Source: Immundisolibacter sp. (GTDB lineage: Bacteria; Pseudomonadota; Gammaproteobacteria; Immundisolibacterales; Immundisolibacteraceae). From it: a stretch of DNA of 64,000 nucleotides. Below are positions 41,834-44,800 of the stretch, one piece after another (the first letter of the stretch is position 1; each line of letters begins with the position of its first letter). Location of the stretch: positions 22,553 to 86,552 of the forward strand of contig NZ_JBFWOM010000004.1 of the NCBI RefSeq assembly GCF_050250495.1, in the 5' to 3' direction. The position numbers were made by a program, and so were the translations under genes. The notes under the pieces are model-generated. The model was not told the DNA's origin, did no database searches, and saw only the letters and a list, made by a program, of their open reading frames with translations.

Positions 41834-44800
41834 GTGCCTTCACCGAATCCGTCGTCGAGCAGGCCGCGCTGGCGTGGCTGGAAGCGGCTGGTTGGCAGGT
41901 CCGCAACGGCGCCGAGATCGCCCCCGGCGAACCCGCGGCCGAGCGCGACGACTACGGGCAGGTGGTGCTGGCCCGGCGCCTGCGCGATGCGCTCGCGCGG
42001 CTGAACCCGGCGCTGCCGGCCGAGGCGCTGGACGACGCCTTCCGCAAGCTGACGCGGCCCGAAGGAGCGGACCTGATCGTGCGCAACCGCGCGCTGCACC
42101 GCCTGCTGGTGGACGGCGTGACGGTCGAGTACCGCGACGCCGACGGCAGCATCCGCGGCGCGCAGGCGCGGGTGATCGACTTCGACGACCCGGCGGGCAA
42201 CGACTGGCTGGCGGTGAACCAGTTCAGCGTGGTCGAGCAAAAGCACAGCCGCCGGCCGGACGTGGTGCTGTTCGTGAATGGCTTGGCCGTAGCGGTGCTG
42301 GAGCTGAAGAACGCCGCGGCCGAGAACGCGACGATCTGGAGTGCCTTCCAGCAGCTCCAGACCTACCAGGCCGAGGTGCCGGCGCTGTTCGCGCCGAATG
42401 CGCTGCTGGCGGTGTCCGACGGCGTCGAGGCGCGCGTGGGTACGCTCGGCGCCGGGCGCGAGTGGTTCAAGCCCTGGCGGACCATTGCGGGCGAGACGCT
42501 GGCCGGCGCGCACGTGCCGGAGTTGCAGGTGGTGATCGAGGGCCTGTGCGCGCCGCGGCGCTTTCTGGACCTGCTGCGCGACTTCATCGTGTTCGAGGAT
42601 GACGGCGGCCGCATCGTGAAGAAGATGGCCGGCTACCACCAGTTCCACGCGGTGCAGGTGGCGGTGGGCGAGACGCTGCGGGCGGCGGAGCTGCACCGCA
42701 CGGCCGGTGGCGTGGCCGACCCCGAGGGCCGCTACGAGGCCGGCCGCAAGCCGGGCGGCCAGCCGGGCGACCGGCGCGTGGGCGTGGTGTGGCACACGCA
42801 GGGCTCGGGCAAGAGCCTGACGATGGCCTTCTACGCCGGCCGCATCGTCCGCGAGCCGGCGATGGGCAACCCGACGCTGGTGGTGCTGACCGACCGCAAC
42901 GACCTCGACGACCAGCTCTTCGCCACCTTCGCCCGCTGCCGCGATCTGCTGCGCCAGCCGCCGGTGCAGGCGGAAAGCCGCGCGCACCTGCGCGAACTGC
43001 TGGCGGTGGAAGCGGGCGGCGTGGTGTTCACCACCATCCACAAGTTCTTTCCGGAGCCCTCACCCCAACCCTCTCCCGCGAGCGGGAGAGGGGGCAGGAT
43101 GGAGACGCTCTGCGATCGCCGCAACATCGTGGTGATCGCCGACGAGGCGCACCGCAGCCAGTACGACTTCATCGACGGCTACGCGCGCCACATGCGCGAT
43201 GCGCTGCCGCACGCCTCGTTCATCGGCTTCACCGGCACCCCGATCGAGCTCGCGGACGCCAACACGCGCGCGGTGTTCGGCGACTACATCAGCGTCTACG
43301 ACATTCAGCGCGCGGTGCAGGACGGCGCCACGGTGCCCATCTATTACGAGAGCCGGCTGGCAAAACTCTCGCTCGATGAGGCGGAGCGGCCGCAGATCGA
43401 CCCCCGCTTCGAGGAGGCCACCGAGGGCGAGGAGGTCGAGCGCAAGGAGAAGCTCAAGACCAAGTGGGCGCAGCTCGAAGCCGTGGTCGGCGCGGACAAG
43501 CGCCTCGCGCTGGTGGCCCGCGACATCGTCGAGCACTTCGAGCAGCGGCTGGAGGCGCTGGACGGCAAGGCGATGATCGTCTGCATGAGCCGGCGCATCT
43601 GCGTGGCGCTGTACCGCGAGATCGTGAAGCTGCGGCCCCAATGGGAAAATAGCAGGGACGGTGCCGACGACGAGCACGGCGCGCTCAAGGTGGTGATGAC
43701 CGGCTCGGCGTCGGACCCGGCCGACTGGCAGCCGCACATCCGCAACAAGCTGCGGCGCGAGGCTTTGGCCCATCGCTTTCGCGATGCCAACGACCCGTTC
43801 AAGCTGGTGATCGTGCGCGACATGTGGCTCACCGGCTTCGACGCGCCGAGCCTCTCCACCCTGTACATCGACAAGCCGATGCACGGCCACGGCCTGATGC
43901 AGGCGATCGCCCGCGTGAACCGCGTGTTCAAGGACAAGCCCGGCGGGCTGGTGGTGGACTATCTGGGCCTGGCGCAGGAACTCAAGGCCGCGCTGGCCAC
44001 CTATACGGAAAGCGGCGGCACCGGGCGCACGGCACTGGACCAGGACGAGGCCGTGGCCGTGATGCTGGAGAAGTACGAGGTCTGCGCCGGTCTTTTTCAC
44101 GGCTTTGACCGGGCAAAGTGGACCACCGGCACGCCGGCAGAGCGGCTCGGCCTGCTGCCGGCCGCGCAGGAACACATCCTTATCCAGGAGCGCGGCAAGG
44201 AGCGCTGCCTGGGCGCGGTGCGCGAGCTGTCGCAGGCCTTCGCGCTGGCGGTGCCGCACGAGGCGGCGCTCGCCATCCGCGACGACGTGGCGTTCTTCCA
44301 GGCGGTGCAGGCCGTGCTCGCCAAGCGCGCGCCCGGCGACGCCCGGCCCGAGGAGGAGATCGAGCACGCGGTGCGGAACATCATCTCGCGCGCCGTGGCG
44401 CCCGAGGGGGTGATCGACATCTTCGCCGCGGCGGGGCTCGCCCGGCCCGACATCTCGATCCTGTCCGACGATTTTCTCGCCGAGGTGCGCGGCATGCCGC
44501 AGCGCAATCTCGCGGTCGAACTGCTGCAAAAACTGCTCAAGGGCGAACTGGCCACGCGCCGGCGCAGGAATCTGGTGCAGGCGCGGTCGTTTGCCGAGAT
44601 GCTGGAGCAGACGATCCGCCGCTACCAGAACCGCGCGATCGAGGCGGCGCAGGTGATCGAGGAGCTGATCGCGCTGGCGCGGGACATGCGCGAAGCCCAG
44701 GCCCGCGGCGAGGCACTGAAGCTGTCGGACGACGAACTCGCCTTCTACGACGCGCTCGAGGTGAACGACAGCGCCGTGCAGGTGCTCGGCGACGAGACGC

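Follow-up and report, generated by a model that had tools for sequence, protein, structure and literature searches.

BoxC/PIT/TMECO-type repeat units translated within the hsd genes of an Immundisolibacter Type I restriction-modification locus

Repeat units in the hsd locus

We analyzed a 64-kb stretch of an Immundisolibacter sp. genome (contig NZ_JBFWOM010000004.1, positions 22,553 to 86,552; hereafter the window, with coordinates counted from its first base) that encodes a Type I restriction-modification (RM) system in which a short palindromic repeat recurs inside hsdM, hsdS, and hsdR. The methyltransferase gene hsdM (35827 to 37440, plus strand; Pfam HsdM_N and N6_Mtase) has its likely true start at MAKKANN. 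The specificity gene hsdS (37424 to 39178, plus strand; Methylase_S and DUF559) carries both target-recognition domains and keeps its frame through a DUF559 cassette, and the restriction gene hsdR (41830 to 45009, plus strand; HSDR_N, SWI2_SNF2, and T1RH-like_C) encodes an intact subunit of 1059 amino acids. All three genes remain open reading frames, and their predicted Type I domain sets appear intact. Each of the three Pfam-confirmed genes holds units of the repeat, as a first-pass annotation made from the letters of the window had stated.

The unit in hsdR (43057 to 43092, minus strand) was identified from its sequence, by a three-block detector, and by its fit to a published consensus. 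It reads CCCTCACCCC-AA-CCCTCTCCC-GCGAGC-GGGAGAGGG on the plus strand and CCCTCTCCC-GCTCGC-GGGAGAGGG-TTG-GGGTGAGGG on the minus strand. The plus-strand reading gives 12 in-frame residues after ...TTIHKFFPE, between TTIHKF and the DEAH box; the sequence and the open reading frame at 41830 to 45009 confirm both the palindrome and its translation, as first described. Of the peptide flanks given in that description, the left one (TTIHKFFPE) was correct and the right one was wrong by a missing G. The solo unit in hsdM (37020 to 37057, plus strand; detector and alignment) reads CCCTCTCCC-GCGCGC-GGGAGAGGG-GCTGG-GGGAGAGGG and is translated as (S) plus 12 residues, which lengthens the loop WFLARDxxG|KFRDRRG by a net 11 codons. 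The remaining two units, each encoding 12 residues and found by the detector, lie in hsdS: a left, N-side unit (38048 to 38082, plus strand), CCCTCTCCC-CCC-GGGAGAGGG-GCCGG-GGGTGAGGG, and a right, C-side unit in inverted orientation (38447 to 38481, minus strand). The Pfam N6_Mtase match runs across the hsdM insert and the SWI2_SNF2 match continues across the hsdR insert, so the frames of both genes have been kept.

The architecture common to these units is a hairpin with a 9-bp, G:C-rich stem (CCCTCTCCC, a loop of 3 to 6 nt, and GGGAGAGGG), followed by a short second loop and a third block, GGGTGAGGG, which in the hsdM copy is GGGAGAGGG. The third block had at first been taken for flanking sequence and is in fact part of the unit. 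Likewise, the description of all copies as the same palindrome is accurate for the stems but not for the loops, which differ (GCGAGC, GCGCGC, CCC, and GCA).

The window contains 10 copies of the 9-mer GGGAGAGGG where 0.51 would be expected, a count reached in 0 of 100 shuffles, and the pattern CCCTCTCCC-N6-GGGAGAGGG occurs twice against 0.02 expected. All 10 of the 9-mers fall into four clusters, one in hsdM (37020 to 37057), two in hsdS (38048 to 38082 and 38447 to 38481), and one in hsdR (43057 to 43092). The full three-block detector recovered these four units and no others from the window and gave no hit in 50 shuffles, and neither the 9-mer search nor the detector found a copy in the remaining ~57 kb. 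The initial observation of four copies within about 6 kb and none elsewhere in the 64 kb is thus upheld, and the clustering withstands comparison with a random distribution. Two units lie on each strand. The hsd genes take up 10.5% of the window; if the unit in hsdM, the cassette in hsdS, and the unit in hsdR each record one insertion, the probability that every one of them landed in hsd genes is ~0.001 by our own arithmetic. The GC content of the hsd locus (66 to 70%) is similar to that of the rest of the window.

The source organism comes from a bioreactor metagenome. An exact 63-mer across the hsdR insert had no match in a species-genome collection, an identical HsdR protein is not recorded, and the neighboring Dus gene matched only short Logan contigs of a bioreactor metagenome. 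Metagenome contigs from the four runs of the source study (X1 to X4) give a lower bound for units elsewhere in the genome. One contig, with depths of 16.3, 10.5, 23.5, and 7.3, tracks the depth of the source genome (18.3, 13, 26.7, and 6.8) and joins position 43093 back to 43057 across 39 other letters, which places two units ~40 nt apart at a locus outside the window. The remaining unit-bearing contigs in these runs differ in depth from the genome and probably belong to other organisms. The source genome therefore carries at least one further pair of units outside the window, but the units do not seem to be abundant in it.

The sequence of the hsdR palindrome identifies it as a unit of the known BoxC/PIT/TMECO repeat, which the first-pass annotation had not recognized. 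Holder et al. (2015, PMC4666352) gave the consensus of the TMECO intrastrand triplex motif, earlier named BoxC and then PIT (potential intrastrand triplex), as 5'-CCCTCNCCC N3-6 GGGNGAGGG N3 GGGNGAGGG-3'. With one mismatch allowed for membership, the minus strand of the hsdR unit fits this consensus exactly; the other three units in the window also fit, their second loop being 5 nt long, or 3 nt once the extra G's are assigned to the blocks as in E. coli copies. Holder et al. worked with the same block sequences as those in the window, and the left hsdS unit and Escherichia coli K-12 TMECO #1 have identical three blocks. The same authors reported 3610 copies in 262 proteobacterial genomes, without association to mobile elements or phages; the 23 copies of E. 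coli K-12 are all intergenic, and five of these loci are inverted pairs. A stable triplex formed solely in the isolated single strand, by circular dichroism and nuclear magnetic resonance, and none was stable in duplex DNA or in vivo. The motif was linked to higher local genome variability among strains, and its function was given as unknown (PMC4666352).

The units in the window resemble the published repeat in their three-block sequence, in their conserved blocks and variable loops, in occurring singly or as inverted pairs, and in their patchy distribution among strains and species. In contrast to the intergenic copies of E. coli K-12, all four are translated in frame as part of open reading frames, and a DUF559 domain lies between two of them. 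Intergenic placement falls outside the definition of the consensus, since it describes the E. coli copies and not the sequence of the motif. Read directly, the unit is open in five of six reading frames and encodes a peptide rich in Pro, Ser, and Gly, and it is therefore tolerated inside genes. The 30 nt on either side of 150 units are not conserved, which makes the unit self-contained at 32 to 38 nt. Its ends are also fixed, because contigs from several other metagenomes match the window over 43057 to 43092/95 alone and then continue into unrelated flanks.

The repeat also extends well beyond the Proteobacteria and Cyanobacteria. A 27-base exact pattern was found at 120 or more loci of a species-genome collection, and the matches listed span more than 10 phyla, with Proteobacteria, Cyanobacteria, Chloroflexota, Planctomycetota, Acidobacteriota, Verrucomicrobiota, Bifidobacterium, Omnitrophica, and others among them. 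The exact three-block pattern (27 bases) likewise matches at least 120 viral contigs of IMG/VR (L212 to L291 among them). These viral matches contrast with the published statement on phages, and some may be prophage calls that include host flanks.

Rfam had no match on any unit, and a terminator scan listed none of the units in the window. In the RNA fold of a 61-nt hsdR segment the 9-bp stem dominates (minimum free energy, -29 kcal/mol), and the fold z-scores of the solo units are weak (-1.65 and -0.18).

hsdR and hsdM alleles of related loci

Comparison with 80 related hsdR loci (designated here by L numbers) places the hsdR unit in a 48-nt allelic patch (43057 to 43104, plus strand), delimited by alignment to L001, L002, L024, L025, and L008, that consists of the unit and GGC AGG ATG GAG (GRME). 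The patch replaces 21 nt (seven codons, D/E-K-G-D-R-H-P) of L001 and L002, for a net gain of nine codons. These two loci, from Candidatus Macondimonas (L001; 94.5% identical outside the insert) and Plasticicumulans (L002; 89.7%), are the nearest relatives of the window allele, and at the same point both read FFPE-(D/E)KGDRHP-TLS, without the insert and with the gene intact.

The same insert is present in more distant alleles. In L024 (Casimicrobiaceae), whose hsdR is 78.5% identical, a unit sits at the same codon and is identical at 36 of 36 positions, with loop (GCGAGC) and spacer (AA) both matching; at this codon L025 and L008 have decayed versions. All four carriers have replaced the same seven codons and have in common a derived G-R/K-M-E/D flank that lies outside the unit. 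The nearest relatives of the carriers lack the patch, as in the pairs window-L001 (94.5%), L024-L040 (95.4%), L025-L052, and L008-L005. The distribution of the patch is therefore patchy, and the hsdR copy of the window is orthologous to those of distant alleles, which bears out in part the early suggestion that the RM locus came from elsewhere.

No longer L024-like tract surrounds the patch; the flanks in the window are L001-like right up to it, which rules out a long conversion tract from an L024-like allele. The simplest reading of these alignments is that the patch had a single origin and then moved between hsdR alleles by short-tract recombination, or was repeatedly lost in the same way. 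A single origin is also simpler because the carriers share the site, the loop, the spacer, and the GRME codons. Transfer between alleles by recombination is what we infer from this pattern.

The insertion site is, from the alignments, a permissive and variable surface loop of the motor domain. Loop length varies among the 80 homologues, and the insert lies opposite a gap in a loop of EcoR124I HsdR (aligned with PDB chains 4be7_B/2w00_A), between the TTIQK motif and the DExH box. Other hairpin-type repeats fill the same hsdR loop in L039, L077, and L075.

Units recur in hsdM as well. The loop that holds the hsdM unit of the window also contains units in L024 and L040 and in L002, with each group translated in a different frame: the peptides are PLPRAGEG in the window, PSPRSRGEG in L024 and L040, and another 12-residue peptide in L002. 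The use of three different reading frames means that the units were inserted separately, only a few bases apart. Another hsdM unit site is common to L024 and L061, and the detector found one degenerate variant of the unit in hsdM of L024, L040, and L041, possibly at a single site. Mapped across the 80 relatives, units are enriched in hsd genes over flanking DNA: the hsd genes account for 28% of the bases and hold 14 of the 19 units (binomial p = 4e-5).

A different hairpin repeat, CGTCATTCC(G/C)GCGAAAGC(C/G)GGAATCCAG, occupies the same hsdM loop (equivalent to 37010 to 37070 of the window) in L001 (L001:3950-4010) and L035 (L035:6490-6550), where it is translated as RHSGESRNPV or RHSRESGNPV; the loop has thus collected at least two unrelated repeat families. 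The mechanically called hsdM reading frame of the window begins at 35632, 65 codons upstream of the likely start, and the extension from 35632 to 35826 is Arg/Trp-rich and seemingly noncoding.

DUF559 cassettes and units inside other genes

The two hsdS units flank a DUF559 domain as inverted repeats. The cassette (38039 to 38491, plus strand; alignment and Pfam) is 453 nt, or 151 codons, long, is open at both ends, and takes the place of seven native codons (AEGRDPG) at the start of the second target-recognition domain, with Methylase_S matches on both sides of the DUF559 match. The domain itself, a predicted Vsr-like PD-(D/E)xK nuclease domain at HsdS residues 231 to 336 (38114 to 38431, plus strand; PF04480, E = 1e-36), scores 125.6 bits against a PF04480 gathering cutoff of 20.6, carries the motifs LDF, ELDG, and FWN, and matches PDB 3HRL over 95 residues (E = 1.2e-22). 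An intein or a group I intron with a homing endonuclease was rejected, as the cassette holds no splicing domain or ribozyme (Pfam finds just Methylase_S, DUF559, and MTES_1575 in HsdS, and Rfam finds no match).

Several smaller features of the cassette may be recorded here. Both the hsdR patch and the hsdS cassette replace exactly seven native codons. An extra lone block, CCCCCTCTCCCC, follows the left unit at 38090 to 38101; RNA folding pairs it with the third block (z = -2.7), so that two adjacent hairpins can form at the left end. In L204, an NCBI genome, a DUF559 insert lies at the same hsdS site, and the cassette split hsdS into two open reading frames. Entotheonella (L061:6559-7260) also has a DUF559 insert at this site, with a different flanking hairpin, ACTCCCCCTCAAGGGGGGAGT, and an upstream stop codon; DUF559 cassettes thus seem to come with more than one type of repeat.

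The association between DUF559 and the repeat holds across bacteria. A protein search with the cassette returned 5624 homologues, and of the 119 top-ranking ones with the FRRQ core, 98 have unit-encoded peptides at one end or at both (12-residue peptides on the N and C sides). Translation of the DUF559 gene therefore normally continues through both units, in fixed frames. The first-pass annotation had tied the repeat to the nuclease cassette borne by hsdS, and that connection stands at the level of the family, where DUF559 genes are normally bracketed by units, but not as local hopping. At the DNA level, cassettes with inverted units were found in the window, L204 to L206, L082, L098, and L129. 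Their loops differ between cassettes; the end loops are identical in L098 and L129, one base different in L082, and different again in the window and in L204 to L206. The rule from E. coli that one type of second loop always pairs with the other (type A with type B) did not hold as a fixed left and right arrangement: the window fits it (CCG left, TTG right), and L204, L166, and L129 do not. Of 120 random unit-bearing loci, seven have a DUF559 gene within 200 nt, against a chance level of ~0.1 by our own rough estimate.

Among predicted targets of programmed inversion, "DUF559 domain-containing protein" is enriched with an odds ratio of 14 (PMC9881135), a signal that flanking inverted repeats would be expected to produce. 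We did not find a link between DUF559 and this repeat, translated in-frame copies of it, or its recurrence in this Type I family in the literature searchable here, and in the literature readable here the origin, mobility mechanism, or function of BoxC/PIT/TMECO is not established.

In E. coli K-12, the DUF559 gene ycjD ends ...RRSPSP* on a degenerate unit, and TMECO #9 lies ~170 nt beyond. A 22-nt piece of the ycjD 3' end, AATATTCTCCAGCACCGTCTCC, is repeated ~100 nt downstream in the fabI-ycjD region (L203:2206-2470), followed by TMECO #9, and the arrangement looks like a rearranged cassette end. By extension, the inverted BoxC pairs of E. coli may be cassettes without their gene. The single-copy ycjD is present in 3378 of 5426 E. 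coli genomes (62%; absent from 38%). A clean pair of filled and empty sites was not found in E. coli: the alternative allele at fabI-ycjD is a different island, and the alleles at adk-hemH differ by a replaced segment without target-site duplication.

Units inside genes are not peculiar to RM systems. Among 194 randomly sampled units, 54 are embedded in open frames that continue for 60 codons or more in both directions, and Pfam confirms the host genes for many of them. For example, MetG carries a full in-frame DUF559 cassette between its anticodon-binding and C-terminal tRNA-binding domains (L082:1307-1794, L098:2111-2649, and P0090) in a Variovorax metagenome-assembled genome (MAG), a betaproteobacterial MAG, and a protein named for Candidatus Methylospira mobilis. 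In-frame units occur in DnaX between domains III and V (L088:4483-4596), Mfd (L084:3457-3494), LigA (L157:5040-5074), GlnE (L177:1365-1756), a GH31 glycosidase, and others. Most of these units occupy interdomain linkers, and essential genes tolerate them. Strictly intergenic placement is thus a feature of E. coli and not of the whole repeat family.

Origin of the hsdR unit and alternative explanations

We consider it likely that the hsdR unit is a tolerated BoxC-type passenger that arrived as a patch of ~48 nt and that its family represents the terminal repeats of a DUF559 cassette. A patch-bearing allele would have arrived by gene transfer, and short-tract homologous recombination would have placed the ~48-nt patch into hsdR. 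The parent of the family would be a cassette of unit, DUF559 Vsr-like nuclease, and inverted unit, of which the hsdS insert would be a complete example; solo units and pairs lacking DUF559 would relate to it roughly as repetitive extragenic palindromes (REPs) relate to a REPtron or as miniature inverted-repeat transposable elements (MITEs) relate to their parent element. DUF559 may cut at the units or move them, either mobilizing them in a REPtron-like manner or homing into unit pairs. The hsdR insert itself is most likely a selfish passenger with no role in restriction.

A broader proposal, which we advance tentatively and regard as possible rather than probable, is that the units are the terminal repeats of a bacteria-wide mobile or homing DUF559 cassette that is translated through, its own ends encoding Pro/Gly linkers so that no intron or intein would be needed. 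A bolder variant would make Type I hsd genes preferred targets of such a cassette or give the HsdS-DUF559 fusion a function of its own.

Several observations weigh against the passenger and cassette reading. Some of the 14 hsd units counted among the 19 in related loci are shared by descent, so the independent events are fewer. In E. coli, the numbers of unit matches are similar in ycjD-positive and ycjD-negative strains, with no visible correlation; units therefore persist without ycjD. The junctions at hsdR, hsdM, and hsdS and at adk-hemH have no target-site duplication, and a few native codons or bases are replaced; because these junctions resemble replacements, no standard transposition chemistry fits them. 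The L024 unit is identical at all 36 positions though the flanks differ at about one base in six (240 nt on each side), an identity that could reflect strong constraint on a DNA element or two independent hits by the same source copy. Finally, for every DUF559 protein considered here, nuclease activity, cleavage site, and transposition are at most predictions.

Known systems offer partial parallels to the passenger and cassette model. The closest mechanistic analogy is the REPtron, in which a short palindromic repeat is also dispersed as singletons and a small nuclease-type gene lies between two inverted copies. However, the flanked gene here encodes a predicted Vsr-like PD-(D/E)xK enzyme (DUF559, PF04480, similar to PDB 3HRL) in place of the HUH/Y1 transposase RAYT, and assignment to the REPtrons was rejected on this ground although the layout is the same. 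REPs are moreover species specific and extragenic, whereas the units described here are nearly identical across phyla, are tolerated in genes, and are putatively mobile. Membership among MITEs was rejected because target-site duplications are lacking. Close known systems also include the Rickettsia palindromic elements and other in-frame MITE-like repeats, and similar small repeats inside coding sequences have been mentioned (PMC2267715); unlike the present units, the Rickettsia elements are ~100 to 150 bp long and occur in that genus alone, and they have neither sequence similarity to the units nor an accompanying nuclease gene. Vsr, DUF559, and DUF2726 have been grouped in one nuclease superfamily (PMC3424549), and homing endonucleases of the Vsr fold are known (I-Bth0305I, PDB 3R3P), along with "fractured gene" endonucleases (PMC2677866). 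The cassette shares with these homing endonucleases its superfamily, the placement of a gene within a host gene at a conserved site, and a patchy distribution among alleles, but it has no intron or intein, is translated through, and has flanking palindromic units that they lack.

An alternative is that the Type I system has recruited the hairpins for a function, whether as recombination sites that shuffle hsd genes, as structures in mRNA or DNA by which HsdR, HsdM, and HsdS expression is tuned or delayed, or as linkers that alter enzyme behavior; in one version the HsdS-DUF559 fusion would bring a second nuclease to the recognition complex. The enrichment in hsd genes of this Type I family, at least three independent hits in the same hsdM loop, the intactness of the unit blocks while loops and flanks diverge, the stability of the hairpins as RNA (the 61-nt hsdR fold above), the recurrence of DUF559 at the same hsdS site (L204 and L061), and the published tie to local genome variability (PMC4666352) are all points in its favor. 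We nevertheless judge it unlikely. The orientation of the units relative to transcription is mixed and none is terminator-like, the solo units fold with weak z-scores, and neither promoter nor terminator activity was detected in earlier work that Holder et al. cite (PMC4666352). In addition, hsdR is intact without the insert in L001 and L002, the cassette of L204 split its hsdS, and the same units and cassettes occur in linkers of unrelated housekeeping genes such as MetG, DnaX, Mfd, LigA, and GlnE. These points also count against the regulatory or shuffling role that the first-pass annotation had raised.

Independent site-specific insertion, in which the unit targets a short loop sequence and the hsdR inserts of the window and L024 are separate events, is quite improbable. 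The native sites all contain Lys/Gly codons of the type A-A/G-G-G-C: the uninterrupted sequences (L001:11216-11236, L005:6992-7012, and the hsdM loop of L017) show AAGGC where hsdR and hsdS are interrupted in the window, and either AAGGGC or AAAGGC at the hsdM position. Separate events in three frames of the hsdM loop (the window, L024 with L040, and L002) and the different hairpin repeat at the same spot in L001 and L035 also speak in its favor. However, the shared native motif is short and built of common loop codons, and it may reflect either a weak target preference or simply the frequency of Lys/Gly codons in loops. For hsdR in particular, the four carriers share not only the loop and spacer but also four derived downstream codons (GRME) outside the unit.

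Local hopping, in which the hsdM and hsdR units would be recent copies from the hsdS cassette made by its nuclease in cis or at short range, would suit four units within 6 kb beside the sole DUF559 gene of the window and the strong link between units and DUF559 in the family, but it is very improbable, since two 1-nt indels and the loop (GCGAGC versus CCC and GCA) separate the hsdR unit from both hsdS units, yet the L024 unit at the same codon is identical to it, the hsdM unit has GGGAGAGGG in place of GGGTGAGGG as its third block and a different loop, and the decayed orthologues in L025 and L008 imply that the hsdR insert predates this genome.

The hsdR unit itself is probably inert; what makes the locus interesting is the light it sheds on the repeat family. 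The element is of a known kind; its setting, translated within all three hsd genes and tied to a DUF559 cassette, was not found described. The locus provides three leads: units can live in genes as translated loop insertions, DUF559 genes, which form a large family lacking an assigned function, normally have units on their flanks, and a unit-bearing patch may have moved among Type I restriction alleles across phyla. Should DUF559 act on the units, a single account would serve for both the domain of unknown function and the old orphan repeat. Should the cassette proposal be true, it would supply a parent enzyme for a repeat described in E. coli since the 1990s and would explain the near identity of units across phyla. 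For annotation, PSPxxGRG, PLPxGEG, and GxGVRG are best read as peptides encoded by the repeat and not as meaningful protein motifs.

The interval between hsdS and hsdR holds two further genes. The first (39178 to 40587) encodes a Schlafen/AlbA_2 protein with HATPase_c_4 and the second (40829 to 41833) a RhuM-Fic protein that matches the PADLOC candidate defense families PDC-S23 and PDC-S05. A Fic-type gene likewise lies inside the hsd operon in L002, L024, and L204.

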